From assembly GCA_000002435.2 (NCBI GenBank), contig CM018793.1: a stretch of 64,000 bases of DNA; one strand, given 5' to 3'. This document shows positions 1,337-36,750 of the stretch, in pieces. The notes under the pieces are model-generated. The model was not told where the DNA came from. It did no database searches and worked only from the letters and a program-made list of their open reading frames with translations. A program made the position numbers and the translations under genes. The stretch comes from Giardia intestinalis. Its lineage: Eukaryota. Within the stretch, counting starts at the first letter, position 1. Each line of letters begins with the position of its first letter.

Positions 1337-1344
1337 CTGAGTCA

Positions 1345-4300
1345 CTACTCTCCTACTGTGTGTCCTGGGCGTATGTGCCACTTTTTAAGCATTGAAATAA
1401 AGCGAGAGTTACCAATTTCAGAAGCCATGGATAGAGCTGTTTGTCCGCTACAGTTCCGCATTCCCAGCTCCTTATCTACTAACAGCAGCGCAGTTTCATA
1501 TGCATTATATTGCACACAGTACATGAGAGCGGTCATTCCTCGGTCATCTTTCATTCCACTCTCATGGGGGACAAGAGCTCTGGATAGTGCTGTATCTCCC
1601 AAGGCTATGGCGTGCATAAGGGCCGTTGCCCCCACGGCATCGCGGGCCCCACAGCCTAGAGGAATACATAATTGTGCAAATGGGAGTTTGTTGGCCTTGA
1701 TGGCATATATGAGAGACGAGTCGCAACCAGGACACCAGACGTTTGCCTCAAACGCTAGAATCTCAGCGCACTTGTAGTGTCCTGATTCTATGGCGACGAT
1801 GAGCCCGGTTTTTCCTTCCTTGGAGAGTATTTTGCCCTCGTGTGTAGATAGGTGCCTTACACCACCCACGTTCCCCACCTCCGCAGCAATCATAAGGGCT
1901 GTGATGCCTGTTTCTGTGACCGTCATTCCATATTCTTCAGAGAGAAGTGGGATGGAGGAGTTAAACGAGAGGAATGCGGCATACATCAAGGCAGTCCACC
2001 CTCTAGAGTCCTTATGACGCACTTGGTGTAAATGCTTTTTTACCTCGACTATGCTTTTCTTTTTGATAGAGTTGATTAGACCTAGCTCGCTATCACGGAG
2101 CATCGTGCTATGGGACATATTAAGTTGTGAAAGCTGCCTGACTGCATCGGGATCGTTTGCTGCAAATGGACCGGAAACAATAAGATTTGAAGAGGCTCCT
2201 AAACTGCTTTGATAACCAAAAAGGCCAGACGAGTGGGCTGATTGCCGAAGAACTTGTTGAGACGCCAAAGATGGAGATACTTGCCGAGAATTTCGCAAGA
2301 TCTGAGCGAGTCCTTTGTCATGTGTTGACCGAGCGCTTAGTGGCATTGCGCATACGCGCTCAATGCGAACCAGATCTTCCTTAGAAACGCAGTCTTTAAG
2401 CTTAGCCCAGTGGAGCTCTCCGAGTGCATCCCTAGCCGAGTCGATCAGATCAAGAGCCAGCTGTTTCATTCCCTTGCGCATAACATATTCTAGCGGAAAC
2501 ATGCCGTCTCTGCCTCTAATCATAAGTTCATACGGAGCCAGAAGCATCGCTATCTTAAGCATCCCCATTTCCAGAGCCACGGAGAGTGCAGTGGCCCCGT
2601 TCTTCTCACGCTTACCAGCATGCTCAGGTATAAGCTGAAGAATTTCTCTGGTAGGGTCATTATTCTTGACTGCGGCAATTAGAGGAGAACCTGTGTTTCG
2701 ATACAAAAGCTCTGGATGGCAAGACGTTGGTCTTTTCCGCTGCTTGATTGGTGTGCATTCGTTTGTCTCCTTTGTATCAGGCTGAGTCGTCGACAGTAAC
2801 AGAGTGCTTGCTACACTGGGAACAGCGTATTGATTAAATGTATCAACAGCAGACGCCTGCGAATTTAGAAGGATGCTCTGATTGCGTTGAAAGTCTTCCG
2901 CTAGAATAAGAATATTGACGATATCTCTGTTATTTAAACTTCGGGCTAAATCTATGGGAAGTAGATTTTGTGGACCGTGGATGCGGGATTCAAACCGAGC
3001 TAGAATGCGCACAAAGGATCGACGATTTAACCTTATAGCATGAGTTAGAGCGGTATTGGAAGAGGAATCGATGCAGCCACATTGAGACGGAGTGTACTTT
3101 TCAACACCACTTGGCAGATTATAAATCACGGATAGAATCAAACCTGTCTTCTTATCAGCGCCCACTAATAGCACCCCAGATGTTACTACGGCTTCTACTA
3201 GCTCTGTCATATTCTGGATGAGGGCGAACTCAAAGGCTTGAGTTGAAAGCAATATATTTGAGGTCAATTTCTGATGAAAAGCTTGTAGAGAAGACATGGT
3301 CTCTTCCAACTCCTTCACTAAAACAACAGCCTCATCAGATAGGAAAGCCTGCACTTGGTCGTTTTTATTTGTTACCTGCTTAATTCCCTCCGCAGAGTTG
3401 CATGCAGGGAGACTGTCATTAAGAGAAATATTAGAGACATCTAACGTTCCGCTTAAGCTACTATCCTCTCGAAGATTCTCTGCCTGACGATAGACCGGCT
3501 CAATCTTTTCGCTCCGAGAGAGAATTATGTGAGACTGAGGCCTGGGACGAGACGCTATAGAAGATAGGCTGGCAGAAGCAGTCTTTGCCTGCATATGCTG
3601 GGCTGCCGCGGTACGTAAAGTCTGAGTTCTATCAACACTACATGGAGCCTTTCTCATCATAGAAGTTCCTGACAAAGGTCTTCTGGTCCTTTCTGGAGTG
3701 ACGGCCGTCGGGATTAGCTTGTTAGCTTGAAAATACTCATACTCAAATATTCGTTGAACAGATCTCTGCAAGTCCCTAAATGACCGCAAAGATGTAATCC
3801 GCCGCAAGTAGAGAACTGTCTGCTCGAGCTCTGTGCTATACGTTCCATTAGGTACATATGCCATTGCATATGCCAGGATACTTCCCAGCTGGTTCGCGTC
3901 GTGGCAGGCGGAGACCGGTGCTTCTGGGTACATATCGTATCCTGTAGTGTGTTCCTTCCGAAATCTAAGTTGTCGAGCCATGGAGTGGATGTCACCGAAT
4001 GCGTAATCCGCGATCAAGATGGTGTCCCCAGTCACTGACGCCACAACATTTTCGAGAGAGAGGTGACCATGTATGTAGTGTCCCCCATTAATAGCCTCCA
4101 GAACAACAAGGCCTTCTATGATTCCTTTGCAGATCCTTCGCAGAAAGAGGTCTGGTGGCGCCTTCTGATGTGTCGCGGCCACTCGCAGAATATCTGCCAA
4201 AGAGCGGGAATTGTCGTACTTATACCCCAGCTTAATGGATCTCTGCGGTGACTCAGCATTATCTAGATGTATAACATCGTATGAGATAACTTGGGGCACT

Positions 4301-4584: not shown

Positions 4585-7245
4585 ATGTCTAATAGCAATC
4601 TTGATTCATATTTGCGTTCTGCTCGTCATGCGCCTGTGCTGCATTGTCCTTTTAGCATATATTCGGAGCTGCAGCACTTAAAAGACTCTAGCGATCTTCC
4701 CTCATTCCTTTTACGTCCGCTGAGCTATAGCTTATCCCGCTTTAACTTATTTAGAAGCGCAGGGTCCATCTCATTTTCAGCCGCACTAGCTCCTGCAGCT
4801 CCCCATGAACACTATGCATATCCGTGTCTTGCCTCACTGGTCCAATTTCTAGGCTACAGGCCAGAGGACTGTAATGCATCCGTGGAACTCGAAAAGCCTC
4901 TGCAAAATCATGATGTCTGCACATATATAGCTTCACCTGACGAGCTGGCGTGCGCTCTATCACTCCTCGGCACCCAACACACCCATCCACCTGATCTTGA
5001 GAGCGATACCACGAGCGACAGTGAAGAGCTGTCTGATGATCAACAATCGCCCAACAGGTCTCGCCCCAGAACTCACGTCGAGCTCCATTTGCAACACCTC
5101 CGGAGGTCAATTCCGCGTCCAAAATCAACTAAGCATGCAAATCTTTACTTACTTCGGGCATCATCTAGGCCTACTGTCTGTCCGAATATCATTCTCGTCG
5201 AAGACAGTGGGGGTGCTGGACTTGCTGCACTTTTTCGATCGATATGTCATCGGGTAAGTGACGTTTATAGCAATCTGCCTGTCCACAGTATCTTTTCAAC
5301 CGTTTATTCGACAAGTATTGGAGAAAAGCAGTGCTTAACAATGGCGCATAGAGGCTTGCAGATGCAATGTTGTAACGACGGTGCTACTAGTGACCTTGCT
5401 ACTGAACGTGTGCTCTTCACAGTCCAAGAATCAAAGAGAATCATGCGCTTATTCAATCGCAAAGAGCGCCAGAAAGACGGGACCTGGACAAAGAGACCCC
5501 GCAAACCCTTAGTATCTCCATCAGAGTCTATAACACAGGCTCTTTTGCGTGCCAAGGCTGCTGCTCAAACAAATAGCAAAGATGAAGATAAAGAGACATA
5601 CCAATTCTCCTCTTCTCTCTCCCCCTCTTCTTCTGAGTCCTCCCTTACTGCGCAACACAAACATAAAATTACATCCTATTTTAGCTATTTGTCAGGCTAC
5701 CCCACCCTTGCATGGCCCCCCGTAACAGTCATTGACTTTAGTCCCATTCAATACAACATCTCTACGTTTGATATGTGCAGCGAGATAAGCTTCAGCCTAG
5801 GTACGGTCCATAAGGAAGCAGGGACAAAGGCGGCTAAGCGGCCAATTCTCGTGGGCTATAGCAGACACCGCTTTAGCTACAGACGACAACTTTTTCGTGC
5901 GCAACTTTTTTATCATATGCTATCTAATTCCTCAAGCTACAAATTGGAAAGTGACAAGTATTACTATAATAGTCTAAATGATTGCATGGACCTACACGTA
6001 GAACAGGCAGTAGTTGAGAAGAGAAAAGGCCAGTTTCGTCCATTATCGGTTCAGGAAGTGCTCTGCGGGATAACTGGAGAGAGTAGATCCCTGGATGAAG
6101 TGGTGCAAAAGATCAGCGAGCCTGCTGATATCATCCCTCCCAAAAAAGTACCAGAGACGAAAAGAACCCAGAAGAAAAATGCAAAATCTAGTAGCAAGCA
6201 TTCTATCTTAGATCAAATGGTAAAGGTATCTCAGAAGCCATCAGAGGCAATAGACTGTGAGGTCGGCGAACCACTAAGAAAGCAGCTACCTTCATCCACC
6301 GTCCTAGACGCAGACTCTTTTATTAAGCTATTTAACAAAACATCAGACAGTAACATAAGCTCAATGCAGCACCTCGGAAGGGACGCACCTGTGCCGACCT
6401 TCATTAACGGTCGAGGCCGGGCGCAACATGAATACTCGCTCATTAATGAGTACTCAGCAGATGATCGGGAGGACATCTCTTTTATTAGTGTGCCGTTGTG
6501 TGAGATTGCTCCATTTAATTGTAGCCACTTATTTATGCTCAAAGATGTGGCTTCAGACATAGCCAAGTATAAAGCGCTTGCTTGTGAGGCACTTGTCTTA
6601 GCATGCTATGACACCGCCAGCTGGCAGGCGTCTAAGCATACGCTATCTCTGCGTCCAGACATACGCCAGCTTTCCAACCTTATACACTTTTGGGGAGATG
6701 CAGCGAGTATGCCCCTGGTGGCTAAGCGAAAACAGGGTGCTGCCTGGCCAGATCACACGTATGCAGACGTTATAGAAATATGTTCGTCTCTTTGTGGCGG
6801 GTTCCTCATTCTGTCGGGGTCATCTCACTTGTCACTGCATCAAGCATCTACTGGGCAGGCTAGTTGCACGATTGAAATAAGTCATATCGTGAATAGTGAA
6901 AGGATTCAGTCAGCCGTTCGCTATGTTCTGTTGTCGCAGAAAGGGTCTCGAAAGCGATACAGAGTAGACTTTGTACCGGAGACGTGTCCAGCACTTCCCG
7001 TAACAGAGAAGTACATATCGTATCTGGAACGTGCAGATCATCAAGATACCATACAATACAATATATCACTCAACATGGACCAGAAAGGCATATGGGGTGA
7101 TATTCTGTTGGCTAGTGGCGAGATCATGACCAGAAGAATGGTAGACATGGTACACATGGCGCTCCCGATGGTCGACTACGGGGCACCAAGCAGCGTACTT
7201 CAAGGTTTGAATGTCTTAAAAAAATGGTCTTATTTGTTGCTTTGA
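4585..7245 (+). CDS. hypothetical protein (886 aa); no family recognised
   Basis: Long uninterrupted ORF with ATG at 4585, divergent from the 4458 gene with a 126-bp spacer. Codon usage matches the neighbouring genes. The antisense ORFs are short. Confidence 0.45.
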   Translation: MSNSNLDSYLRSARHAPVLHCPFSIYSELQHLKDSSDLPSFLLRPLSYSLSRFNLFRSAGSISFSAALAPAAPHEHYAYPCLASLVQFLGYRPEDCNASVELEKPLQNHDVCTYIASPDELACALSLLGTQHTHPPDLESDTTSDSEELSDDQQSPNRSRPRTHVELHLQHLRRSIPRPKSTKHANLYLLRASSRPTVCPNIILVEDSGGAGLAALFRSICHRVSDVYSNLPVHSIFSTVYSTSIGEKQCLTMAHRGLQMQCCNDGATSDLATERVLFTVQESKRIMRLFNRKERQKDGTWTKRPRKPLVSPSESITQALLRAKAAAQTNSKDEDKETYQFSSSLSPSSSESSLTAQHKHKITSYFSYLSGYPTLAWPPVTVIDFSPIQYNISTFDMCSEISFSLGTVHKEAGTKAAKRPILVGYSRHRFSYRRQLFRAQLFYHMLSNSSSYKLESDKYYYNSLNDCMDLHVEQAVVEKRKGQFRPLSVQEVLCGITGESRSLDEVVQKISEPADIIPPKKVPETKRTQKKNAKSSSKHSILDQMVKVSQKPSEAIDCEVGEPLRKQLPSSTVLDADSFIKLFNKTSDSNISSMQHLGRDAPVPTFINGRGRAQHEYSLINEYSADDREDISFISVPLCEIAPFNCSHLFMLKDVASDIAKYKALACEALVLACYDTASWQASKHTLSLRPDIRQLSNLIHFWGDAASMPLVAKRKQGAAWPDHTYADVIEICSSLCGGFLILSGSSHLSLHQASTGQASCTIEISHIVNSERIQSAVRYVLLSQKGSRKRYRVDFVPETCPALPVTEKYISYLERADHQDTIQYNISLNMDQKGIWGDILLASGEIMTRRMVDMVHMALPMVDYGAPSSVLQGLNVLKKWSYLLL

Positions 7246-10711: not shown

Positions 10712-11422
10712 TTAAGCGAGGACCACCTTGATCGAGGTCTGGACTGTTGGCACATCGATAACGGTGAGAGTTTCGTGCAGGGCGACTGTCTGTGGAAAGG
10801 AGATGCGCGAGAGACTCGACACAAGGTGTGGGTATTGGGTTTTGGTGTACTGTGTGCTTATGTGAAGTTCTTTGAGGACGTCAGTGAGCAGAGGAAGGAC
10901 CTGAGTGCATGCCCTCTTGCTTCCAAACCACACCTCTATCGTGCAGAACTCCTTCTCTAGCTTCAAGCAGCAGCCGTTGATTCCAAGCTTGGTCTTGTCT
11001 GTGGAGGCCGAGGAGTGCTCCAAAGCTCCAGTCAAAAGCAGTGTGCAGATAAAATTCCAGAGAGAATCTAGATCCGTGGGATCGACAATTGGATGTAACT
11101 TGTTAGACGCTTGATAGACCGCCTGGACTGCTTGCACCGATAGGCAACAGCGAAACCTGACGATCGATCCGCCGGCATTCATGGGATCTTCCCACAGGCA
11201 CTCTATTTGGTCTCTGAACAGTGAAATATGACCCTGCCTCAACTTTGAAATGGACGGAATGCTGTGCAAGGAAGATATAATTTCATCTAGATCAGTTGAA
11301 TCCACGCAAATCCTGCTATTCTGCTGGCTGAACGGTATCGGCAGGCTGTGCTTGGAGTAGAAACGCAAGGGCACCCAAAAGGCAACGCTCCACGAGGAGA
11401 GTAGCTCTCCCGTTGCCCCCAT
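10712..11422 (-). CDS. hypothetical protein (about 236 aa)
   Basis: The ORF track begins at a GTG (11491) and overlaps the ARL gene. The first ATG (MGATGELL...) is at 11422 and is preceded on the coding strand by 'gggtcaaaaaATG'. Confidence 0.35.
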   Translation of the reverse strand: MGATGELLSSWSVAFWVPLRFYSKHSLPIPFSQQNSRICVDSTDLDEIISSLHSIPSISKLRQGHISLFRDQIECLWEDPMNAGGSIVRFRCCLSVQAVQAVYQASNKLHPIVDPTDLDSLWNFICTLLLTGALEHSSASTDKTKLGINGCCLKLEKEFCTIEVWFGSKRACTQVLPLLTDVLKELHISTQYTKTQYPHLVSSLSRISFPQTVALHETLTVIDVPTVQTSIKVVLA

Positions 11423-11463
11423 TTTTTGACCCACTCGTTTTAAAACAAAAAGGCAACACGGAT

Positions 11464-11970
11464 TCAAGGCTGCTTTGGCACATCGAGCCACTGCGCAATT
11501 TTGTCACAGCCTTGGCCGTCCAGCCCACAAAACATAAAAACCTCTTGGACGCGGTCTTTGTCCAGTTGTAAAGTGGTCCTGTAATAATCGGCCTTTTGCG
11601 ACACCCCAGGCTGGTCTATTTTCGTTACTACCACTGCAAAACGGGAAGCACGCATGTCCGTGTGCCCCAATATGTCCTTTATCAGATCCCGCGCTTGATC
11701 GAGCGGGCTTGTCCCGTCGACCACAAAGAGGCACGTTTGCGTGCCTGAGTAGTGCTCACTCCACAGCTGCATCATCTCAGCCGAGCCACCCACGTCTATA
11801 ACTTCATATCTATTGTATTTCTCTGCAGTGAAGTTGATTGTGGGATTGACAACAGTAAACGAGTTGGTTTTTAGGTAATTGATCAGGGTGGATTTCCCAG
11901 AGAACTGCCGGCCCAGAATCAATAACTTGGCTGTTTTATGGCGAGCGGGTCTGGAGCTGGCTGCACCCAT
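11464..11970 (-). CDS. ARF-like (ARL) small GTPase
   Basis: N-terminal MGxxxS (Gly2, a candidate myristoylation site). P-loop 'GRQFSGKST', switch II 'IDVGGSA' (DxGG), and 'TKID' (NKxD-like). AT-rich initiator on the minus strand ('cttaaaaaattataaaatattATG'). Confidence 0.7.
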   Translation of the reverse strand: MGAASSRPARHKTAKLLILGRQFSGKSTLINYLKTNSFTVVNPTINFTAEKYNRYEVIDVGGSAEMMQLWSEHYSGTQTCLFVVDGTSPLDQARDLIKDILGHTDMRASRFAVVVTKIDQPGVSQKADYYRTTLQLDKDRVQEVFMFCGLDGQGCDKIAQWLDVPKQP

Positions 11971-12104
11971 AATATTTTATAATTTTTTAAGTTATGAGCA
12001 AGGAAAGAGGAAGGCATAACAAAGGTCTTATTGGATGAAAAGCCTTAGTCAGTACTTACAGAACTAGAGCCGCAACAGAACGGGATCCGGTCATAAGACC
12101 CCAC

Positions 12105-15100
12105 TCAGATCTTACCGTAAGTGGACCTTCTGCTCGGTGTAAGAGCGGTCCCAGCCCCGGAGCTGGGAGCCCTGTAGTTCAGTGCTTCTGCAGCCTTCGG
12201 TAAGTCAACTAGCATGAGCTTGTCCATCAACTCCTTCTGCCTTTCCAACTCGGTCATAACTATGGTTTTCTGTTGCGAGAGGGTGCTCATTGTTTGAGAT
12301 GCATCCAGCATGGATTTGCTGAGCCTTGTCGTCATGTTCTCTGCCTGATTGCGTAGATCGTTAATTTCTTGCTCATATCTAACATTCTCGGCTATTATAT
12401 CATCCATGGCAGACATCTGCTTGTTCAGAGCCAATATATCTTTCTTGAGAGCATCGTTTTCTGCCTTAAGTAAAAGAAATTCTTTGGTTGATGTGATTAG
12501 GCTACTGAATTTTGAATAGAGCATAGAGTGCTCCCTCTCTATACCCTCTGGATTATCTGCCGTCACTTCTATCTCCTGTATTAGTGCTCTCAGTGCATCA
12601 CGCTCCTCAATGAGAGAGGTTATGTCTACATAGGTCTTCTTAAGAGATGCCAGTTTCCGTTTCAGTATTGTTACCTCCTCGATCAGGCAAGGATCGTCCT
12701 TATGACCCAGAAACTGTGCCAATTGGTCTTCAAGATACTGTCGTTCGAGAACAGCAGCGGCTACTTCCGGGTTAGCTTGTCTTGCCTCCTCAAGTGAGCT
12801 GGAGAGTGAGGCTATCTGCCGGTCCAGAAGTGTCGGATTGGTGGAAAAATCCCGAAACTCTTGTAAGTCCTGAGACAGTTCGGCTCTGTGCTTAATTCTG
12901 GCGCTCAGGGACGTGTTGCTGTCACGAGCAGTTGCTAGCTGTACTTCCAGTGTCTCTATTTCATTTTGGAGGCGACTCTCTTGGCCTATTTGGCTCTTGA
13001 ATTCCTTTAATTCCTTTCTCAACGATAAAGCCTTATCGATCATGGTGCTAAGGTTATAGTTACTGGACTTAAACGCCTCCAATATGTTGTGCAAATTATC
13101 AATCCTGGTTTGTAGCGCCTTTGTGTTTCTCTCAGTTCCTTCTGCGCTCTCTGCTGCCATCTGGCAGTCCTCACAGAGGATGGTGAGGTCTTCTATGTCA
13201 AGAAGGCAGTTATGTATTTCTGGATAAGACTCTCGTAATTCAAGAAGGTTGTTTTGTATGACTTCGCGGCGAGTTTCTAGCTCATCTAGGGCTCCTGGCC
13301 TGAGATAATTGTCTATCTCGGCGTGCAAGTCCTTTATGTCCTGGTTCAATGCAGTTATCGCGTGATCATCCTGCTGCAGTTGTTGAAGCTGCAGTTGAAG
13401 ATGTGCCTTCTTGGCCTCTAATTGGTCAAGGACGACTTTTGGATCCTCGATGCGCTCATATTGCTTTAGTGACATTCCCAGCTCGTCGCAGTCCTTTATT
13501 AACTGGTGTAGCTGTGGATTGGCCTTCATTAGCGCATCGAAACGAAGCTGCAGATCACTCTTCTTTGTCTCGAGCAGCTCAGTATTGAGCCTCCCTTCAT
13601 GGATGTCACCAACCAACGTCTCTAGGTACTTATTTTCCTCTATGATGCTGAAAATGGAAGGATGCTTCTGTTTGAGAGCAGACAGTTGATCTACCAAGTT
13701 GGCATTTTCACGCACTATGGCAGAAGGCTGTTTAATGGCATTTGTTAAGCTATTAAGCTCTACCGTGGTTACTTCTATGCGGTTAATAAGCTCGGCTAGC
13801 TGGGGATTAGACTTCCGGAGCGTCTCCACTTCTGTTTCCAGACTCCTCTGACGGGCCTCGAGACGGCTCGGGTTATCTTTGTATGTCTTCATCTCTTCTA
13901 ATATCAGTTTGAGGTGCTCTACCTCGTTGACAAGGTGAGTGATGCCTTTTTCGCTCTTTATAGTGAAAAGCTCGGTCTGGAGTTGCGAGATATCATCAGA
14001 CAACGTCTTTTCATTGATCTCTCCGGATTTAAAGGCATTAATGAGACCTCTGAGCCGGTCTTGTTCGTCAAGTAGTAGCGAAACAGCAGAATTAGTATTT
14101 CTTAGAACGCGTGCCTCATTGCTTAACGATGTAATGACATTGCGTAACTCTGTTGTATCCAGAGAGTAGCGCTGAAGTTCAACAATCTCACGCTCTAGTT
14201 GGGCTTTCTCAGCTAAAAGTGCACCAACGGGTGACTTCTTTGCAGTATCATCTAGCGCTTTCAGTTGAGCCTTCAGTTGGGCAATTTGTTCCACGAGGCA
14301 TTCTGACTTGACAGAGTTATCTTTAGCTAATTGCGTGCTGGCTTCCAGCTTCTGCTGAAGAGAGTCAATCTCTGCAAGACGCTCAAACACATGGCTGTGC
14401 GCACTGTGCAATTCAGCAATCTCGTGCTCAATCTCTACTTTTTTCTGAGCAAGCTGGTCAGGACTATTAATATAGTTTTTGTATTGGCTCACTTCCTGCT
14501 GCATGCCCTCAACAGACTGCAGCAGCTGAAGAACATCCGGGGAGCCACGCTTCAAATCCTCCAAGGCATTGATTAGCTCACGATTTTGCTGCTCTAGCCG
14601 TGGCCTAGATTGAATAGCTATCTCTAGTGTTTGCATCTTCTCCTTCAGGCGTTCATTTTCAGCCAAAAGGGAATCTATGTCTGGGTTAAGTGTCTTCAGT
14701 TCTGCAATCTTATCTAGCAATACCTGCTTGCTTTCCTCCAAACGTCCTCTATCATCAATGCTCGCGTGGAACTCATTGATTTGCTGCAGCAAGCACAGCT
14801 TATCTTGTATGATGGATTCGATATCTGGAAAGTCGAGCTGCAATGCCGCCAGATTCTCTTGTAGCTTGTAATTATCTTCTTGCAAAGCTTCAGGATCTAT
14901 ATTTCCTTCTTTAATATCCATTATTTGGGTGCGGAGTGCGTTGTTTTCGTCCAGGAGCCTCAGAGTATTTCCGTGGGCTTCTTTCAACGCTGCTAGATTT
15001 TCCTGCAGCTGGATATAGTCCGCCTCAATTGTGAGCTTATTGCGCACTGCTGTCTCTACTGCTGCTTGCTCTTCACGGATCTTCTCCAAACCGGTTATCA

Positions 15101-17063
15101 TAGATAGAATCTCCGCACTACTCTCCTTTATTGAAGCCAGCTCTTCTTGAGACTTAACTAGCTCCCCTAGAAGTGTAGAAGGAGACTCAGCGTATAGCTT
15201 AAGCGACTTGATCTCGTTCTGAATGATGCCACGCTTTTCTAGAAGCTCCACTACTCCCGGTGAGTTTGTGCGGAGATCGTTTAGCTCCTGTTCTAGATTA
15301 CAAATCTCTGTGGCAAGAGCGGTGCTGCTGGTTGCAAGTCCATTGAGCTCCATGATCTCGTCTTGCAGAGCTGCTCTCTGCTTAGTAAGTTTCTCCACCT
15401 CTGGGTTATTGCGTTTAAGCTCTTCTTTCAGCCCGCGCATAGCCTCCACTTCGTTGTAAATTGTCTTTATATTGGCCAATGAATCTCCGAAGTTCTTGAT
15501 ATCCTGAGCCAGCTTGTTCTTATCTGCCAAAAGCCCAACGATATCTGGGTTCCCTTCTACTAGCATTGTTAGCTCTCCTCTCAATACCTCTAGTTCTTGC
15601 TCCAAGCTTTGCTTGTTATTTATGTACTCCTTAAACTCTAAGATCTCGTCATGTGTTCGCTTATAGATGTCAACGAGAAGTTTCACATCCGGAGAGGATG
15701 TCTTCAGCATTCCTAGCGTCTCCTTTTCCTGATTAAGCTTGTCAGCAAATCCAGCATTGTTGTCGAGTGCCTGCTGATAGAGGTCCACAATAGATCTGCA
15801 CTCCACATGCTCTCTAACCAGGAGGGAAATCTCTGGGTTGTTCTTTTCAAGTTCTGTAAGCTTCTGCTTCAGGCTTGTACATTCAAAAAGAGCACTTTCT
15901 AGAGTGCTGGTAGAGATGCGTTGTATCATGGAGCGCAGGTCTTCTGCCTTCTTAAGGGTCTCTGCGACATCCGGGTGGTTGGCCGCCATTTCCTGGTATT
16001 GCTTGCGAAGCAACGCATTCTCATTTAACCCATTTGTGGGAAACTGCACCATCTGCCGCAACTCTTCGATGTTCGATAGTAGCTGCTTTCTCTCTGTATA
16101 CCCTTGCATGACTGCCGGGTTGCTTTCGAGTATGGAGTCTATGCTCTGCTGGAGCATGCTTATATTATCAGTTAAACTAACAGGATTAATAATATAATTG
16201 TCCAACAGGCTTTTCTCTGCTTTGAGTTCCATGATTTTGTCAATATACACCGATGCAGTTTGATGTTTCGCGCGCTTAAGCTCAATGGTCGCTTGAAGTG
16301 CAGAGATCTGGTGCGATAGTTGGCTCAGGTCTTCCCCTGTATCCTCGGATGGCGCTGGACCATTACGAACAGGATGCTCAATTAAGGAATATAGATTAAG
16401 CTCGTGTTCTGCGTCTAAATAATCCTGTACCAAGGCCAGTGAATCCGCACTCATCGCTTTTCGAGTCTCCTCAATCTGCTTCCTCAGCAGCTCTGCCTCT
16501 GGGAGCATGACATGGCTTCCACTTGAAGCTGCCTGGATAGCTCGTGTAAGTACTTCAAGCTCCTTTTCAAGCTCTAATTTTTCAGATGTACATTTTTGAA
16601 TGGTCGGGTTTGTGCCCAAATCTGCCACCCGTGTCCGTAGCTCTTCGACTGTGCGGGAAAGAGAGCTCAACTCGGCAAGCTGATCCTGCAATTTAGTGCA
16701 TTCTTCTTTGAGAGCTTCCCTACTTCCTGATTGTTGTTCAATGGCTTCAATACTGGCAAGAAGGTCCTGTCGTGTGACAGATAACGTGGCACGCCCAGAG
16801 AGATCTTGGCAGGACGCAAGAATTGCACCATAAAGAGACTCCACCCGGCCATCGAGTTGCTGACGATACGTCTCCGAGAGCCTCTGTACCTGGAGCTGAA
16901 GCTCAGCACCAAGATTCTTCACGACTTCCTCCGGAAAAAGCCCTGCACCGCCCAAAAGCGCCAAGACATATGTGCTAAAGATATCCATTGTGCCGCTCAC
17001 AGCACCGTTCACTTCCTCGACCAGGGCACTCAGCTGCTCCAGTGGCACGGGATTCAAGGACAT
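12105..17063 (-). CDS. giant coiled-coil repeat protein (about 1,650 aa), probably cytoskeletal
   Basis: The ORF track starts at a TTG (17084); the first ATG (MSLNPVPLEQ...) is at 17063. The protein is almost entirely heptad-rich alpha-helical sequence. It is organised as 20 or more degenerate units of 30-40 residues, each punctuated by an N/S-P-(D/E)-h-x-x-L-L motif: NPEISLLV, SPDVKLLV, NPDIVGLL, NPEVEKLT, SPGVVELL, NPDIDSLL, SPDVLQLL, NPQLAELI, NPQLHQLI, YPEIHNCL, NPEVAAAV and others. Confidence 0.6.
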   Translation of the reverse strand: MSLNPVPLEQLSALVEEVNGAVSGTMDIFSTYVLALLGGAGLFPEEVVKNLGAELQLQVQRLSETYRQQLDGRVESLYGAILASCQDLSGRATLSVTRQDLLASIEAIEQQSGSREALKEECTKLQDQLAELSSLSRTVEELRTRVADLGTNPTIQKCTSEKLELEKELEVLTRAIQAASSGSHVMLPEAELLRKQIEETRKAMSADSLALVQDYLDAEHELNLYSLIEHPVRNGPAPSEDTGEDLSQLSHQISALQATIELKRAKHQTASVYIDKIMELKAEKSLLDNYIINPVSLTDNISMLQQSIDSILESNPAVMQGYTERKQLLSNIEELRQMVQFPTNGLNENALLRKQYQEMAANHPDVAETLKKAEDLRSMIQRISTSTLESALFECTSLKQKLTELEKNNPEISLLVREHVECRSIVDLYQQALDNNAGFADKLNQEKETLGMLKTSSPDVKLLVDIYKRTHDEILEFKEYINNKQSLEQELEVLRGELTMLVEGNPDIVGLLADKNKLAQDIKNFGDSLANIKTIYNEVEAMRGLKEELKRNNPEVEKLTKQRAALQDEIMELNGLATSSTALATEICNLEQELNDLRTNSPGVVELLEKRGIIQNEIKSLKLYAESPSTLLGELVKSQEELASIKESSAEILSMITGLEKIREEQAAVETAVRNKLTIEADYIQLQENLAALKEAHGNTLRLLDENNALRTQIMDIKEGNIDPEALQEDNYKLQENLAALQLDFPDIESIIQDKLCLLQQINEFHASIDDRGRLEESKQVLLDKIAELKTLNPDIDSLLAENERLKEKMQTLEIAIQSRPRLEQQNRELINALEDLKRGSPDVLQLLQSVEGMQQEVSQYKNYINSPDQLAQKKVEIEHEIAELHSAHSHVFERLAEIDSLQQKLEASTQLAKDNSVKSECLVEQIAQLKAQLKALDDTAKKSPVGALLAEKAQLEREIVELQRYSLDTTELRNVITSLSNEARVLRNTNSAVSLLLDEQDRLRGLINAFKSGEINEKTLSDDISQLQTELFTIKSEKGITHLVNEVEHLKLILEEMKTYKDNPSRLEARQRSLETEVETLRKSNPQLAELINRIEVTTVELNSLTNAIKQPSAIVRENANLVDQLSALKQKHPSIFSIIEENKYLETLVGDIHEGRLNTELLETKKSDLQLRFDALMKANPQLHQLIKDCDELGMSLKQYERIEDPKVVLDQLEAKKAHLQLQLQQLQQDDHAITALNQDIKDLHAEIDNYLRPGALDELETRREVIQNNLLELRESYPEIHNCLLDIEDLTILCEDCQMAAESAEGTERNTKALQTRIDNLHNILEAFKSSNYNLSTMIDKALSLRKELKEFKSQIGQESRLQNEIETLEVQLATARDSNTSLSARIKHRAELSQDLQEFRDFSTNPTLLDRQIASLSSSLEEARQANPEVAAAVLERQYLEDQLAQFLGHKDDPCLIEEVTILKRKLASLKKTYVDITSLIEERDALRALIQEIEVTADNPEGIEREHSMLYSKFSSLITSTKEFLLLKAENDALKKDILALNKQMSAMDDIIAENVRYEQEINDLRNQAENMTTRLSKSMLDASQTMSTLSQQKTIVMTELERQKELMDKLMLVDLPKAAEALNYRAPSSGAGTALTPSRRSTYGKI

Positions 17064-17157
17064 TGCCTGTATAGTATTAGTCAAAAATTATTACAAGTAG
17101 TTGCAAAAATTATGGCAAATGCTAAATTCCGAATTTTGAGACACCTCTAAATTAAAA
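17064..17157. promoter_or_regulatory. 94-bp bidirectional promoter region between the two head-to-head coiled-coil genes; AT-rich initiators on both strands
   Basis: '...tcaaaaattattacaagtagttgcaaaaattatggcaaatgctaaattccgaattttgagacacctctaaattaaaa' lies between ATG 17063 (minus strand) and ATG 17158 (plus strand). Confidence 0.5.
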
Positions 17158-19731
17158 ATGTCCGAGGCTATGGTTTTCAGCAAGATCGACGAGTACACGC
17201 TCTTTATGAGCCGGTCTCTCCAGAAATCGCTCAAAACATTTGCTGAGCAGGTCATGGCCCTAATTTATCAGTATAAAGATACGCTTGTCGAGGATAGGCT
17301 TGCTCTCACCAACACCCTCGACGAGGCGGTTCAGATTCTTGTCGACAGTGGCAAGGAGGAGGCGGATAAGCTTGGATTTAATATATACTCTGCGGTGAGT
17401 AGGTATATCAGCGAGATCTGGGCCTCTCAGTCTGGTCAGACAACGGCGGCCCCGCCAGCGACGGATATCGACGGGCTCCACAGGCAGCTTGTTGCTCTCA
17501 AGAATAGCCTTGGCCAAAATGCTGAGCTCTATGAGCAGAGGTGCCAACTTCAGGCGGAGTTGCGCGAACTTCAGGAATTTTCGGAGAACCCCGCGGCAGC
17601 AGTCGAGGAAATTATGCAGCTGAAGGCCCAGATAGATGAGCTCAAGTACGGGGCCTCGAACCACAACGCCCTTGTCCAGGAGAAGAGGGATCTTGAGCGC
17701 CATCTTGCAGACCTGCGCCTCAGTAGACAAGACACTAACTCACGCCTCCCCCAGGAGATCGACAGACTTCGCGCTGAGATCGAGGACGAGAAGCGCAATC
17801 TGCCGCATATGGACGATCTGCAAAGGCAGCGCGACGAGCTCCAGAGGCAGCTAGACACAATCAGGCGCCGGGGCAACACGTCGGGTGTCATGGCCGAGAT
17901 TGAGAACATACAGAGGCAGATAGACGATGCCAACTCCTCTGCGTCGAGCGAGCATGAGCTTCGAATGCTCCGTGCCGAAGTTGAGACTCTCCGTGCCCAG
18001 AAGTCCATCGTCACCCGTCTTGAGGCGGAGAATGCGGATCTGCGCCGAGAGCTACAGGACATTCGTGGCCGTGCTCAGGAAATGAGCGCTAGCCAGCGCT
18101 ACAGCGCCAATCAGGCGCAGGAGCTGCAGGAGAAGGCGATGCAGGCAGAGGAGCTTCTGCAGCAGAAGATTGAGCTTAGGCGCCAGCTTCATGAGGCTCT
18201 AGAGCGAGCAGATGCAGGTGAGGCTGCTCTTCGTGACAAGAGGCGACTTGAAGATGAGATAAAGGGCCTTCAGTTGCGTCTTACCGAAAACGACTTTACG
18301 AAGGAGCGCTCTATCCTCCGGAACGAGATCCAGGCTAAGACTACCGAGATAGACACACTTATCAGTGACCGTCGCGCTCTGGAGACCAAGCTCCTCAATA
18401 AAGAGGCAGAAGTGGATCAGCTTCTTTATGAAAAGCAACTTCTCAAGACAGAGCTGAACTCCTATCGCGGAACAAACGAGGATATAGACAAGCTTACCTT
18501 TGAGAAACGCCAGCTTGTTGAGGAGCTAAACGACCTGCGTGAGAAGACTATCAAATACGACCAATTGGCTCGTGAGAAGGCGGCGCTCGAGACTGAACTC
18601 AAGGAAAACTCGTACAACTTTGACCAGTTGCTTGAACAAAAGCAACAGATGCGTAGCGATCTCAATGCCCTTCGCGAAAAGGCAGCCGACTACGAGCGCG
18701 TCGATCGCGAGCTTCGCCTCAAGGACAAGGAGCTCGAGGAGAAGAATGCTGAGATCGAGAGGCTTCTTGAGGACCGCCGCGTCATGCGTACCGAGCTCCT
18801 CCACTCTAAGGAGTCTGCGACCGATGTTGACAGTTTGATACAAGAGAAGAGGCTGCGTGACCGAGAGCTTGCCCACCTTCGTGACCGCATGAGCGAGTAT
18901 GAGCGTGTGGTAGAAGAGAGGATCCAAAAGGAGAAAGAAAATAACCTTCTTAAGCAGCGTATCACGGAATTGGAGCAGCAGCAGCGCACCGCGACAGTCC
19001 GCGAGACCGAGATGAGTGCCCTCCGTGAGAAGGCTAACGAGTTAGATGGCTACAACCGTGAGCGCCAGGCAAGAGAGCATGAGATCAACATGTTGCGTGA
19101 CAAGGCCTTGGAGTCCGACAAGCTTCGCCAGGATAACAGGGTGATGGCGATGGAATTGACAGAGCTTCGCGAGAAGGTGCAACTTCTCGAGAAACTCCAA
19201 TACGAGAAGAGAGCACGAGACGTAGAGATGCTCGAGTTGCGCCACAAAGCCATGGACGTTGACACTCTTGTTGAGGAGAAGCAACGCCTTGAAATGCGTC
19301 TTGCAGAGCTCAAGATCAAGGTCAATAATTATGATCAGCTGGCAGACGACAAGGCTCGTCTGCAGGAGCAACTGAAAGAAATGTCAGACAAGCTGATAGA
19401 GTTCGAGATGATCATGGATGACAACCGAAGGCTTAAGCTTCAGGTTAAGGAGCTCGACCTTAAGACTGCAAACATGGAGAAGCTTTATGAGGAGTACAAG
19501 AAGCTCGAAGACCAGCTGAAGGCAACGAAGGCGATGACCTCTACAGGCATGGGTGTGTCGGCTGCCTCTCCGGCATTTTACAAGACGAAGAGTATGCGCC
19601 TTACACAACAAAACAACCAGATGAAAAACACAACAGACAACCTCCTAACGCGCGACATTCCCAAGTTGATCGACAAGCTTATTGAGCGCCCTGCGGGGAC
19701 TACAACCATGGGCCGAAGTGGTAAGTTCTGA
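17158..19731 (+). CDS. coiled-coil repeat protein (857 aa)
   Basis: ATG at 17158 preceded by 'ctctaaattaaaaATG'. The central region consists of degenerate 29-residue repeats of the form L-x-x-LR(E/D)KAx-x-(Y/D)-(E/D)-x-x-x-x-EK-x-x-LExEL: LNDLREKTIKYDQLAREKAALETEL, LNALREKAADYERVDRELRLKDKEL, MSALREKANELDGYNRERQAREHEI, LTELREKVQLLEKLQYEKRARDVEM. The antisense ORFs are repeat artefacts. Confidence 0.6.
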   Translation: MSEAMVFSKIDEYTLFMSRSLQKSLKTFAEQVMALIYQYKDTLVEDRLALTNTLDEAVQILVDSGKEEADKLGFNIYSAVSRYISEIWASQSGQTTAAPPATDIDGLHRQLVALKNSLGQNAELYEQRCQLQAELRELQEFSENPAAAVEEIMQLKAQIDELKYGASNHNALVQEKRDLERHLADLRLSRQDTNSRLPQEIDRLRAEIEDEKRNLPHMDDLQRQRDELQRQLDTIRRRGNTSGVMAEIENIQRQIDDANSSASSEHELRMLRAEVETLRAQKSIVTRLEAENADLRRELQDIRGRAQEMSASQRYSANQAQELQEKAMQAEELLQQKIELRRQLHEALERADAGEAALRDKRRLEDEIKGLQLRLTENDFTKERSILRNEIQAKTTEIDTLISDRRALETKLLNKEAEVDQLLYEKQLLKTELNSYRGTNEDIDKLTFEKRQLVEELNDLREKTIKYDQLAREKAALETELKENSYNFDQLLEQKQQMRSDLNALREKAADYERVDRELRLKDKELEEKNAEIERLLEDRRVMRTELLHSKESATDVDSLIQEKRLRDRELAHLRDRMSEYERVVEERIQKEKENNLLKQRITELEQQQRTATVRETEMSALREKANELDGYNRERQAREHEINMLRDKALESDKLRQDNRVMAMELTELREKVQLLEKLQYEKRARDVEMLELRHKAMDVDTLVEEKQRLEMRLAELKIKVNNYDQLADDKARLQEQLKEMSDKLIEFEMIMDDNRRLKLQVKELDLKTANMEKLYEEYKKLEDQLKATKAMTSTGMGVSAASPAFYKTKSMRLTQQNNQMKNTTDNLLTRDIPKLIDKLIERPAGTTTMGRSGKF

Positions 19732-19753
19732 GCCTCTGTGAATTTACACCTGG

Positions 19754-22720
19754 TCATAAGTAGCCTGTGTTAGAAAAGTTAGCAATTTTGTCGTACATGT
19801 ATGGTTTGCAAAAGTTCATCTTTATATGTGGTCGTGACTTCTGTGATATGAGATCGCAGTAGGAGACGATGGCCGGACGTATCCTGTAAACATGCTTAGA
19901 TCGTGCTATGGAATCCAATCTTTTCATTAGCTTTTCGTCGATAGATTGCTGGAGTTGCTGCTTGCGTAAGATATCGCCTGCGTTGAAGGCCAGTGAGAGG
20001 TCTAGAATAGCTGTAGTGGTTTCTGTGATAATGTCTAATGGTTCTTTCGCTCTGGAACCTAGTAGATGAAATGAATCAATCTCTACGCCACTTGTTGCAG
20101 TCGAGGGTTGCTTTCCTTGCGTGCTGTTGCTCTCATAAGATAGGTATTTGCTGGAACGGGGATTAAGGGACAATGGCTCTAAGACGGACTGTCCATTCTT
20201 GTAAAAGCGTATTGTCTCGGTTGCCATATCCACTATGGCGCCTACCACATCGTTGGATCCCAAGAATAGTCCACTGAATCTCCTTTGACCACGCTCAAAG
20301 ATAAATCCATCTGTAGTTATAAAAGCTCCATTGATAGCCGGAGAGTCGCATCCGTGGAATAGCTGCTCTTCATACATTACCCCCAATGCTAGATTTGTAG
20401 CACTGGGGAGGTTCTTGAGGATAAACTCGAAGTACACCTTAGCGAATTTGGAAGATGATAAGATGTACTTATTACATTTGATCGTGACATAGTGCCTAGG
20501 AGTCTTTAGTTCAATATGGAGCCCGCTCACATCAAGATCATAGAGGTCCATATGCTTAAGCATGCAGACGGTTCCATCCAGGATCTGATATTGTTTCACT
20601 AGCTTCCGGCTCTCAAGCACCTCTGTGAGAAGATCTTGGAACGGTTCCGTCCCTGAGGTAAGAGCCATTTTGATTGCATCCTCACTCCACTGTTTGTACA
20701 TTTCACGCATGGCAGCTCTTCTACTACGCATCTCCTCTATAAGGTATTCAAACGGCACTATCTCTACTCGTGTACGTTTAGGGCATTGCTTGGTCCCACA
20801 GGGGTCTCGAGGATGATCACAGGGATGCTCCTGGGCCTCCTCTGATGGGTGGGAGAAAGGATTGGGGGCACTATATATTGTAGCGCTTGTCTCTGATAGC
20901 TCATTATTGGGATTGTTGGTAGTATTAAGCTGATGGAACGAGGAGAACTCCTGGACAGATGGAATGACGACATGCTCCAGGTCCTTTAGGGTTTCGTCAT
21001 CAATGTGAACAGAACTACTATCAATTAATGGAAATAGTTGCTCCTTTAACTCCTGATTTTCCCCTGTTAATAGATTGATCTGTAACGTGACTCCTTGCTT
21101 GTCTTGCAACACGAGATTGTACTTATCTCCATCTAATCCTGACTGTCCTGTGCTCTCCTCATCTCCTGTGAAGGGCGCACGGGATTGTCTTATGGCCGCA
21201 GAAAAGCCTAGGTTAATAAGCTCTTTATTTGCACAGTCCTTCATAAGAATGCACCCGTACGCCCTGATATGCATGAAAAGAAGACCCAAGTCCTTTGTAG
21301 AGACGCGTCGAAGAATCTCTCGATAGATATCTTCTGATACAAGCTTGCAACTGGTCAGTGCTGGTGATGTATATATCTCTGGTGAGACAATATGGCGTGC
21401 AATTAGGACCGTGACAGCATCTATGAATGTGTCCGACTCCAGAGAAATGGCCATTATGAGCAGTTGCGGTAGCTGAGCTATAGGCTTAAAGATCATTTCC
21501 TCTAGCATCTTTAGATCTGCCAGTCTGCGACTCGTTCCCGCTGTCTCCTGAGTTAGCGCAAAGAACGCCTGAAGGTGGTCCCTGTACTCTGTTTCGAGCG
21601 CATCATAGTACTGCAAAGCATCCACTTGGTGATCCACATACACACTATCAATCTGCTTGGCTCCATTTTTCAGCAGCCCCTCATATTTCAACTGCACCTC
21701 CTTCACTGCTTCTATGAAGCTCGCGGTCACCTCATCACAGAGTCGCTTCTCTGCGTATGCCTTCCAGCTTTTGAGACAGTTAAGCCTTTCCTCCCTACGT
21801 ATGTCGATCAGCATATTGAATTCGTTGGTTATTTCAGTTGCATATGTTTCAGCCAGAGAAATGGCAGATGATATCAGTCGCTGCTCACTTATAACAGTGG
21901 GGTGGCGGCAAAAGAGAAGAAAGCGTGCAAAGCCATCGGGATATAAGTGAGGATGAGATCTGTGTGTTTCGCAGGAGGCCATATGGGGGAAGCTTCTGTC
22001 CACTAGCTCTATGGCAGCATCCTCTTCAATAGTCGCAAAGCAGCCCTGAGACTCTCCATAGATGGCGGGGGGAAGGTCACGTGTCTTTTGTGCGTAAAGC
22101 CGTGACATGAGATTGGACTGCCTGGTAAGAGCGCATCTTCGAGTAACAAAGGAAATAAACTTCTGGCCTTTCAAGTTTGTGTAGAGTAGGGAGTCTGAGA
22201 TATGAGATAGAACAGGGGAGCTTGCCTTTAGTTCCTCTGGTGGCACATGCAGAGGAAACTGAACAATTAGCTTCTCTTTTCCGTAGTTTGAGGTTTCTCG
22301 TTGGAAGATCAGTTTCTCCTGAGTGTCTGTCTGGGGAGGAAAGGCCAGCAAGGACCGATCCTTGAGAAGTATGCTCTCCGGATCCTTAAGTATGGCATCT
22401 CTCTCCTCTTGTAGTGTAAGCTCTCTGGAGATAAGGGAAACTAAGGGTGCATATAAAGGAGAATTAATGAGTGTATCTAGGCGCAGAAGAAGCGCTTTAC
22501 TGTACAAGTTGTACCTCTCTGGTTTGGGAAATTTGCCGGGCGCCTTTTCTCTCGCTTTTGCATAAAGATAACAGAGTGCATCATTGATCCCATCCTCTGT
22601 CGTACTTTCATAGTTATTGGCCCAGTACGCCGAGAGGAGGAGCTTGTCTTCCGAAAACGAAAACTCAGTAATGGCAAGGGGCATCGGCCACTCCACGACA
22701 GGGGACGCGGGATAGCCCAT
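19754..22720 (-). CDS. SPRY (B30.2-like) domain-containing protein (988 aa)
   Basis: ATG at 22720 with 'gttaaaataATG' on the coding strand. The segment '...KVYFEFIL...LALGVMYEE...FITTDGFIFERGQRRFSGLFLGSNDVVGAIVDMATETIRFYKNGQSV' fits the SPRY core pattern (G.NDVIG..lD...g.l.FykNG). Confidence 0.4.
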   Translation of the reverse strand: MGYPASPVVEWPMPLAITEFSFSEDKLLLSAYWANNYESTTEDGINDALCYLYAKAREKAPGKFPKPERYNLYSKALLLRLDTLINSPLYAPLVSLISRELTLQEERDAILKDPESILLKDRSLLAFPPQTDTQEKLIFQRETSNYGKEKLIVQFPLHVPPEELKASSPVLSHISDSLLYTNLKGQKFISFVTRRCALTRQSNLMSRLYAQKTRDLPPAIYGESQGCFATIEEDAAIELVDRSFPHMASCETHRSHPHLYPDGFARFLLFCRHPTVISEQRLISSAISLAETYATEITNEFNMLIDIRREERLNCLKSWKAYAEKRLCDEVTASFIEAVKEVQLKYEGLLKNGAKQIDSVYVDHQVDALQYYDALETEYRDHLQAFFALTQETAGTSRRLADLKMLEEMIFKPIAQLPQLLIMAISLESDTFIDAVTVLIARHIVSPEIYTSPALTSCKLVSEDIYREILRRVSTKDLGLLFMHIRAYGCILMKDCANKELINLGFSAAIRQSRAPFTGDEESTGQSGLDGDKYNLVLQDKQGVTLQINLLTGENQELKEQLFPLIDSSSVHIDDETLKDLEHVVIPSVQEFSSFHQLNTTNNPNNELSETSATIYSAPNPFSHPSEEAQEHPCDHPRDPCGTKQCPKRTRVEIVPFEYLIEEMRSRRAAMREMYKQWSEDAIKMALTSGTEPFQDLLTEVLESRKLVKQYQILDGTVCMLKHMDLYDLDVSGLHIELKTPRHYVTIKCNKYILSSSKFAKVYFEFILKNLPSATNLALGVMYEEQLFHGCDSPAINGAFITTDGFIFERGQRRFSGLFLGSNDVVGAIVDMATETIRFYKNGQSVLEPLSLNPRSSKYLSYESNSTQGKQPSTATSGVEIDSFHLLGSRAKEPLDIITETTTAILDLSLAFNAGDILRKQQLQQSIDEKLMKRLDSIARSKHVYRIRPAIVSYCDLISQKSRPHIKMNFCKPYMYDKIANFSNTGYL

Positions 22721-34875: not shown

Positions 34876-34972
34876 TGGCTTCTGTTGCAACTTTTTTACC
34901 CTTTGATTTACTGACTTTCGTTGTAAGCGCCCAAAAGACTTGTCGCCCAGGCTGATACTTCCCTTTGACGAA

Positions 34973-36709: not shown

Positions 36710-36750
36710 TGGATTTCCAGAATAAAATTTCTTTTCTTCCGCAAATTTCC

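Follow-up and report, generated by a model that had tools for sequence, protein, structure and literature searches.

The Giardia median body protein gene stands head to head with a probable distant paralogue that shares its 24-residue helical module

What are the two long genes that point away from each other across a 94-bp gap in the genome of Giardia intestinalis, and are they linked by anything beyond the DNA that separates them? They lie in a 64,000-nucleotide stretch of strain WB (GenBank assembly GCA_000002435.2, contig CM018793.1; hereafter the window), in which an initial annotation, made from the sequence letters, described a divergent pair of internally repetitive coiled-coil genes (approximately 1,650 aa on the minus strand and 857 aa on the plus strand) with an AT-rich spacer. 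The coordinates, lengths, orientation, and spacer given there are correct. Exact-sequence look-ups confirmed the window as G. intestinalis WB and identified the minus-strand gene as well as both outer neighbors. The pair is laid out as follows:

12105-17063, minus strand: coding sequence of GL50803_16342 (hereafter 16342), annotated as a hypothetical protein; 1652 aa from the first ATG, 186 kDa, isoelectric point 4.8
17064-17157, unstranded: intergenic spacer, 94 bp between both ATGs, 72% A+T
17158-19731, plus strand: gene GL50803_16343, which encodes the median body protein (MBP); 857 aa, 100.6 kDa, from the list of open reading frames (ORFs) and the computed composition

We consider it probable that this locus consists of the MBP gene and a head-to-head distant paralogue, and that both encode elongated, all-alpha structural proteins derived from one ancestral module of approximately 24 residues. 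The initial annotation missed the mutual relatedness of the two proteins.

The plus-strand gene is that of MBP, a long-known ventral-disc protein of Giardia. We identify it as such because a published knock-out guide RNA, MBPgRNA95 (AACATTTGCTGAGCAGGTCA), matches the window only once (17235-17254, plus strand) and at the right offset (i.e., the Cas9 cut falls between ORF bases 94 and 95, in agreement with the authors' "base 95"), and because the size and mass agree with those published for GL50803_16343 (857 aa and 100.6 kDa here; 857 aa and 101 kDa in the literature). The WB sequence of MBP had no exact match in a collection of 15 billion proteins, and only fragments, with 97 to 99% identity, were present in the 50% representative library. 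MBP is abundant in ventral-disc preparations and is needed for a domed disc; its signal is found in the body, margin, and overlap zone of the disc and, only on occasion, in the median body, and its loss through morpholino, CRISPR interference (CRISPRi), or quadruple-allele knock-out results in discs that are flattened and open, in aberrant microribbon-crossbridge complexes, and in poor attachment (PMC12367319, PMC6337905, PMC3243723). It is one of the few disc proteins of Giardia with a clear loss-of-function phenotype. MBP has been described as lacking homologs outside Giardia, Spironucleus salmonicida lacks it, and no solved structure is related to it in sequence. The earlier guess that the locus encodes cytoskeletal coiled-coil proteins was therefore right for the smaller gene, whose product is a protein of the disc and median body; for 16342, a role of this kind may be proposed.

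The product of the minus-strand gene is XP_001707410 (A8BES0) by exact-sequence look-up, and a version of its ORF that extends to a TTG codon (to 17084) reflects only a mechanical ORF limit. We found no main-text mention of GL50803_16342 in the literature searched under several spellings, and no homologs of it were found outside the G. intestinalis complex. Pfam searches with MBP and 16342 returned only sub-threshold coiled-coil noise. A word-based homology search gave no matches for either full-length MBP or the first 300 residues of 16342, a result that we count as a limit of the method and not as evidence.

Both proteins are repetitive far beyond chance. In the autocorrelation of BLOSUM scores, compared with that of shuffled sequences (the largest z value in any shuffle was approximately 4), 16342 peaked at lag 48 (z = 15.0) and lag 24 (z = 9), with further peaks at 96 and 72, and MBP peaked at lag 24 (z = 11.5), with further peaks at 48, 72, and 96. 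The dominant lags were reproduced in two orthologs of each protein. The internal periodicity previously claimed for the two proteins is thus real, and the units are of other lengths than proposed. The parts of the two genes are as follows:

16305-17063, minus strand: N-terminal region of 16342 (residues 1-253); helical, outside the 48-residue array, well conserved
12414-16304, minus strand: repeat array of 16342 (residues 254-1550); approximately 27 units of 48 residues
12105-12413, minus strand: 16342 residues 1551-1652 and the stop codon, the C-terminal tail; carries the conserved VDLPKAAEALNYR motif
17446-19533, plus strand: MBP residues 97-792, the repeat array; 29 units, each of 24 residues, with a few spacings of 21
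17518-18093, plus strand: first eight punctuated units of MBP (residues 121-312); helix breakers kept; the stretch with repeated alignments to 16342

When written in rows of 48, the array of 16342 (residues ~254-1550) resolves into approximately 27 units, each a pair of 26 and 22 residues opened by an N-cap-proline ([NSD]-P), and not into units of 30 to 40 residues as had been proposed. The unit consensus is L...L..LK..NP[DE]h..LL.E...L..EI.EF...I.NP..L., in which the breaks, major at L..LK..NP[DE]h..LL and minor at ..[NSD]P..L, delimit helices of approximately 26 and 22 residues. Iteration with a hidden Markov model (HMM) recovered 17 clean units in register. The spacings between the 29 prolines of the array are almost solely 22, 26, and 48, and the hydrophobic columns follow a 4-3-4-3 spacing along each helix that is reset at every proline. 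N-cap-proline dipeptides are more than twice as frequent as in shuffled sequences (24 versus 9.5). The strict motif [NS]P[DE]h..LL, which had been taken to close every unit, is present 5 times (versus 0.03 in shuffles) and 10 times in a relaxed form.

MBP has the unit consensus L.ELREKA.E.D.L.EEK..LE.E., which we obtained from the row layout and the unit HMM; the profile was built from HMM-defined units, as strict slicing into 24 residues blurred it owing to the 21-residue spacings. The previously suggested unit of 29 residues is wrong: the unit has 24 residues, 29 being the number of units, and the motif given for it itself spans 24 residues from its first to its last leucine. Helix breakers (ENP, GASN, RLP, NLP, GNTSG, and NSSASS) end the first eight units, and units 9 to 29 contain none; these later units nevertheless keep the 24-residue phase shift. 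Since the breakers are confined to the first eight units, most of the MBP array can form long coiled-coil rods.

The two arrays had been described as repetitive in different ways, which is not the case: 48 is twice 24, and the hydrophobic period is common to both. Fourier analysis of the hydrophobic residues gave a peak at 3.44 residues in both proteins (i.e., 24/7, or seven core positions per 24 residues), compared with the canonical 3.50, and that of the helix breakers (P, G, N, and S) gave a peak at 24.2 to 24.3 residues in both. Neither protein is a canonical continuous coiled coil (i.e., an unbroken 3.50-residue period without breakers), given the 3.44-residue period of both and the prolines of the 16342 array. 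Because no tandem repeats were found at the DNA level in either array, the arrays must be old. Collectively, the data support the view that 16342 and MBP are lineage-specific, all-helical, heptad-based repeat proteins of Giardia.

The decisive control for relatedness is a library-wide search. When MBP was compared by phmmer with 1.84e9 representative proteins, only three proteins were returned at E <= 1e-3, namely, two fragments of MBP itself and an ortholog of 16342 (P0002; E = 2e-10, 56.5 bits, 8 stretches); no myosin, SMC protein, or other long coiled coil reached E 1e-3. Since the search of the whole library returned just MBP fragments and the 16342 family, an old inverted duplication is the most likely origin of the pair. 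Direct comparisons gave consistent results. BLASTP aligned MBP with 16342 at an E value of 6e-8 (the best high-scoring segment pair joins MBP residues 88-357 with 16342 residues 1355-1625), and hhalign matched the profiles of the two sets of orthologs with a probability of 89.8 and an E value of 1.8e-6. In a local phmmer search, MBP scored 35 to 56 bits against three 16342 orthologs; no reversed sequence was among the matches listed, and the other matches had E values of at least 0.1. Cross matches to reversed sequences in BLASTP reached 25 to 27 bits only. The alignments also respect the architecture of the repeats: the punctuated units of MBP (residues 107-305) align break on break at seven to eight places along 16342, as in the pairing of EFSENPAAAVEEIMQLK (MBP) with YIANPAALTDSINMLQ (16342). 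When the unit profile of MBP was slid along the unit of 16342, the top 2 of the 48 shifts were 4 and 28 (i.e., 24 residues apart), with a score of 10.9, and reversed MBP units scored no higher than 1.8.

The evolution of the two genes was followed in three lineages, i.e., WB and two Logan assemblies (runs ERR3333380 and ERR3333381; L001 and L002), both of which contain the head-to-head pair. Synonymous sites are near saturation between the lineages (proportion of synonymous differences [pS], 0.61 to 0.78). MBP is strongly conserved (93 to 94% identity of its orthologs to WB; 92% of residues invariant) and 16342 much less so (67 to 71% identity; 62% of residues invariant). The corresponding rates of nonsynonymous substitution (dN) are 0.03 to 0.04 for MBP and 0.18 to 0.21 for 16342, with values of approximately 0.11 for the neighboring ARF and SPRY genes. 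Aligned across the three lineages, 16342 nonetheless has gaps in just 4 columns out of 1652, and it conserves 31 of its 40 prolines. Because indels are almost absent and prolines are conserved, the architecture of 16342 is under purifying selection, while its sequence is comparatively free. In the L002 assembly, the gene prediction for MBP (701-3277) takes the fifth codon as its start (MVFSK); a conserved ATG is found upstream of it (MSEA), so that the spacer measures 95 bp, as in L001.

The spacer itself is 94 to 95 bp long in all three lineages, and 70 of its 95 alignment columns are invariant. Because synonymous sites are nearly saturated over the same distances, the spacer is clearly constrained, most strongly on the MBP side, where one feature stands out:

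17131-17157, plus strand: invariant block of 27 nt (GAATTTTGAGACACCTCTAAATTAAAA) that ends at the MBP ATG; 27 of 27 positions invariant in the three lineages

With up to 3 mismatches allowed, no second match to the 17-nt core of this block (17135-17151) was found in the window. The block terminates in an AT-rich, initiator-like element such as has been reported from Giardia promoters, and it presumably comprises the core promoter and the 5' untranslated region (UTR) of MBP, a role that we assign by reference to the published description of the Giardia initiator (PMC1885649). We infer that the 94 bp hold the promoters and 5'UTRs of both genes. The spacer also contains a short upstream ORF on the MBP strand (17113-17151; ATGGCAAATGCT...TAA, 12 codons), the ATG of which is not conserved (TTG in L001 and ATA in L002); it is probably meaningless.

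Does the shared spacer make the two genes a regulatory unit? The initial annotation suggested co-expression from shared promoter space. In its full form, this reading holds that one bidirectional promoter drives a co-regulated pair, the products of which come together, perhaps as partners, in the same structure (i.e., the disc, median body, or funis). The genes do form a bidirectional pair, being head to head, separated by 94 bp, and both transcribed, and the layout and spacer length conserved in three lineages, together with the invariance of 70 spacer columns against near-saturated synonymous sites, speak for such a unit. In published RNA sequencing (RNA-seq) data from trophozoites on Caco-2 cells, the mRNA of MBP (log counts per million [logCPM], 9.43) fell upon contact with the host cells (log2 fold changes of -1.55, -1.85, and -2.07 at 1.5, 3, and 4.5 h), and that of 16342 (logCPM, 6.86) also fell (-0.69 at 3 h, the sole time point among the rows listed). 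Paralogues, moreover, often co-assemble. Both genes are transcribed, and the direction of their response at 3 h agrees, but the magnitudes do not: transcript levels differ approximately 6-fold in CPM and roughly 11-fold per kb in favor of MBP, and the response of 16342 at 3 h is much weaker (-0.69 versus -1.85). In strand-specific RNA-seq data (Franzen), MBP has a value of 233 fragments per kilobase per million (FPKM) in WB, while 16342 is not among the rows listed, which reach down to an FPKM of 38.6. The strongest conservation of the spacer is on the MBP side only, and 16342 is not in those supplementary candidate tables of the 2011 disc proteome study that were searched and that list MBP.

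The arrangement is also generic. Promoters in Giardia have been described as inherently bidirectional, with a typical intergenic spacing given as 30 to 177 bp and a spacer of 153 bp shared by the ran and phd genes (PMC1885649). The window itself contains six divergent pairs, with gaps of 126, 94, 163, 449, -61, and -19 bp. A short divergent spacer is ordinary for the compact genome of Giardia, and, since head-to-head spacers of such size are the norm in this organism, shared promoter space is a weak basis for inferring co-expression. Compared with the ran/phd pair (Teodorovic et al. 2007, PMC1885649), the MBP/16342 pair is alike in having divergent genes, a spacer of <200 bp, AT-rich initiator-like elements, and transcription of both genes; it differs in the unusual conservation of its spacer (70 of 95 columns and the 27-nt invariant block) and in the probable mutual relatedness of its genes. 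On balance, a co-regulated pair whose products share one structure is a minority view that we regard as doubtful.

Another rival idea is that MBP and 16342 are unrelated, that their similarity and 24-residue period are convergent or compositional, and that they are neighbors by chance, the genome being compact. Coiled-coil proteins often yield spurious matches, and several of our results weigh against common descent. The BLASTP score of 16342 against its own reversed sequence (42.7 bits) is level with that of 16342 against MBP (43.9 bits), so that part of the similarity must be periodic and compositional. The unit HMMs are barely significant in one direction (the 16342 unit matched MBP orthologs at E values of 0.004 to 0.016) and returned nothing in the reverse direction. 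The N-terminal domains of the two proteins show no significant similarity (z = 0.4). The 16342 tail motif VDLPKAAEALNYR resembles RDIPKLIDKLIER of MBP only weakly (P of ~0.006 to 0.06, which is suggestive only), and a weak D[LI]PK....L..R motif is the sole trait that the C-terminal tails share. A further set of observations tells against the structural part of our proposal: in the literature searched we found no localization or phenotype data for 16342; in addition to its absence from the disc proteome tables, it is not in the extracellular vesicle (EV) proteome table that lists MBP; and AlphaFold2 (AF2) gave no confident tertiary structure or trustworthy packing for it. For residues 386-889 of 16342, AF2 predicted helices only, mostly broken at the major NP sites (predicted local distance difference test [pLDDT] of 61, predicted template modeling score [pTM] of 0.21), and for the N-terminal 260 residues it produced an all-helix model of low confidence (pLDDT, 59; pTM, 0.24).

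Against an independent origin stands the specificity of the match: among the 1.84e9 representatives, no other coiled coil matched MBP at E 1e-3, but the family of its immediate neighbor did so at 2e-10. Reversed cross matches stayed at 25 to 27 bits in BLASTP, and none appeared in the phmmer list. Convergence would further have to account for a common non-canonical hydrophobic period of 3.44 residues combined with a 24-residue breaker period, for best profile registers 24 columns apart, and for the alignment of breaks with breaks. We therefore judge an independent origin to be unlikely. Taken together, the similarity between the two proteins exceeds the coiled-coil background and they share the repeat module, while homologous terminal domains were not found. 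The best fit for 16342 is as a second, divergent MBP family member, and common descent of the two genes by inverted tandem duplication is likely, though not proven.

In our preferred scenario, the pair would have been born by inverted tandem duplication and would since have been transcribed divergently from the constrained AT-rich spacer of 94 to 95 bp. MBP would have retained the 24-residue module (i.e., three heptads plus three residues) in 29 copies, with breakers surviving only in the first eight units. In 16342, two modules would have fused into the 48-residue unit (26 + 22), present in approximately 27 copies, with nearly every module opening with an N-cap-proline. The larger protein would then form not a continuous rod but a chain segmented into short amphipathic helices, and it may assemble either as a dimeric segmented coiled coil or through intramolecular hairpins. 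Its role may be a structural or scaffolding one in the cytoskeleton, at lower abundance than that of MBP.

That 16342 might be an SMC-type chromosome protein or another conserved long-coiled-coil machine (e.g., a golgin or tether), as the name 'Chromosome segregation protein SMC' given to its DH-strain copy in public databases and a weak Pfam match to TMF_TATA_bd (E = 8e-4, below the curated cut-off) would have it, is highly implausible, given that its array of 48-residue units runs uninterrupted by a globular head or hinge, that its homologs are confined to the G. intestinalis complex, and that no SMC_N, hinge, or ATPase Pfam match was found at E <= 1 (only sub-threshold matches of coiled-coil type). 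Walker A/B and hinge domains were looked for and are absent. Because 16342 has no SMC head or hinge domain, the SMC name seems to be a misannotation prompted by similarity among coiled coils.

How, then, do the two proteins compare with each other and with known families? 16342 is like MBP in its 24-residue module, its 3.44-residue hydrophobic period, and its specific sequence similarity. It is unlike MBP in being twice as long, in the fusion of its modules into 48-residue pairs, in having a proline break at almost every module, and in its unrelated N-terminal region; in addition, its dN is 5 to 6 times higher and its mRNA level is approximately 6-fold or more lower. In the SF-assemblin/beta-giardin family, the repeat comprises 29 residues (i.e., four heptads and a skip residue). 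Members of this family, which are segmented coiled coils (Weber et al. 1993, cited in PMC3243723), resemble MBP and 16342 in being cytoskeletal, microtubule-associated heptad rods with a regular discontinuity, and they share the context of the Giardia disc. MBP and 16342 differ from them in their period of 24 (three heptads plus three residues) and, in the case of 16342, in discontinuities that are true proline helix breaks. A coil of the SF-assemblin/giardin type, which the 29-residue unit of the initial annotation would have implied, was rejected, as the top lags of the autocorrelation do not include 29 and Pfam gave no SF-assemblin match.

Exchangeable apolipoproteins (apoA-I and apoA-IV) consist of tandem 22-residue amphipathic helices punctuated by proline. 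By analogy only, 16342 is closer to these proteins than to a continuous rod, with its tandem amphipathic helices of approximately 22 to 26 residues, each opened by proline. It is unlike them in lacking any sequence relationship and in having a heptad-type 3.44-residue pattern instead of the 11/3 pattern (3.67). The spectrin repeat is a three-helix bundle of approximately 106 residues, and spectrin, like 16342, contains long arrays of helical segments with regular breaks. The comparison with spectrin made by the initial annotation does not hold, however: spectrin repeats were rejected for 16342, the period of which is 48 residues of two helices and not 106, and no match to Pfam PF00435 was found at E <= 1.

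The new points that emerge are modest, namely, the recognition of 16342 as what appears to be the only detectable relative of MBP, the shared 24-residue module with its 3.44-residue period, the contrasting evolutionary rates, and the 27-nt invariant block. If 16342 is indeed the only relative of MBP, it becomes an obvious candidate for another structural component of the cytoskeleton that serves attachment or division, and perturbations close to the MBP promoter may also touch 16342. A published CRISPRi guide, MBP(-7), lies within the shared 94-bp spacer, and the MBP knock-out cassettes (inserted at base 95) are approximately 190 bp from the ATG of 16342, which places both sites no more than about 200 bp from that start codon; effects on 16342 are unmentioned in the MBP CRISPRi and knock-out papers searched. 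The pair also allows one 24-residue helical module to be compared under naturally contrasting constraint (92% versus 62% of residues invariant). The general picture of genome organization in Giardia is unchanged by these findings.

A bolder extension would make 16342 an unrecognized second member of the MBP family that works with MBP in the disc or median body, with the 48- and 24-residue units serving as rulers by which the two paralogues would set or read out the periodicity of the microtubule-associated structures of the disc. A helix plus a short linker would span roughly 7 to 8.7 nm per 48-residue unit and 3.6 to 4.2 nm per 24 residues (values that are arithmetic from the helix rise and not measurements), and these lengths are commensurate with the 8-nm spacing of the tubulin dimer and the 4-nm spacing of the monomer. 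We regard this extension as distinctly improbable.

The MBP gene is flanked by GL50803_16342 and GL50803_95023, and the outer neighbors of the pair are as follows:

11464-11970, minus strand: ORF of an ARF-family GTPase, identified by exact-sequence look-up
19754-22720, minus strand: GL50803_95023, a SPRY-domain protein identified by exact-sequence look-up; convergent neighbor of MBP

The stop codon of MBP and that of the SPRY gene are 22 bp apart (19732-19753), and the published 3'UTRs of MBP (24 and 166 to 168 nt) would overlap the 3' end of the convergent GL50803_95023. Within the coding region of MBP, the minus strand contains two ORFs of 156 aa (17260-17730) and 163 aa (17571-18062) with low-complexity translations rich in S, R, and C; both probably arise as artefacts of a sense strand that is repetitive and biased in codon use. 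Slight overlaps between ORFs occur elsewhere in the window, between the IF4E-like ORF and the ARF ORF if the long start is taken (10712-11970) and within a tandem pair (22 bp; 7224-7245), and two head-to-head pairs of ORFs overlap by 61 bp (36751-36811) and 19 bp (45187-45205). These overlaps may reflect start codons that are mis-set or genuine overlap of genes. AT skew is strongly negative (approximately -0.20) at positions 12001-16000, in the coding region of 16342, and at 34001-36000, a stretch that covers an ORF on the minus strand (34973-36811) without a Pfam match. At the right end of the window, the minus strand carries an ORF of 3178 aa (54244-63780).

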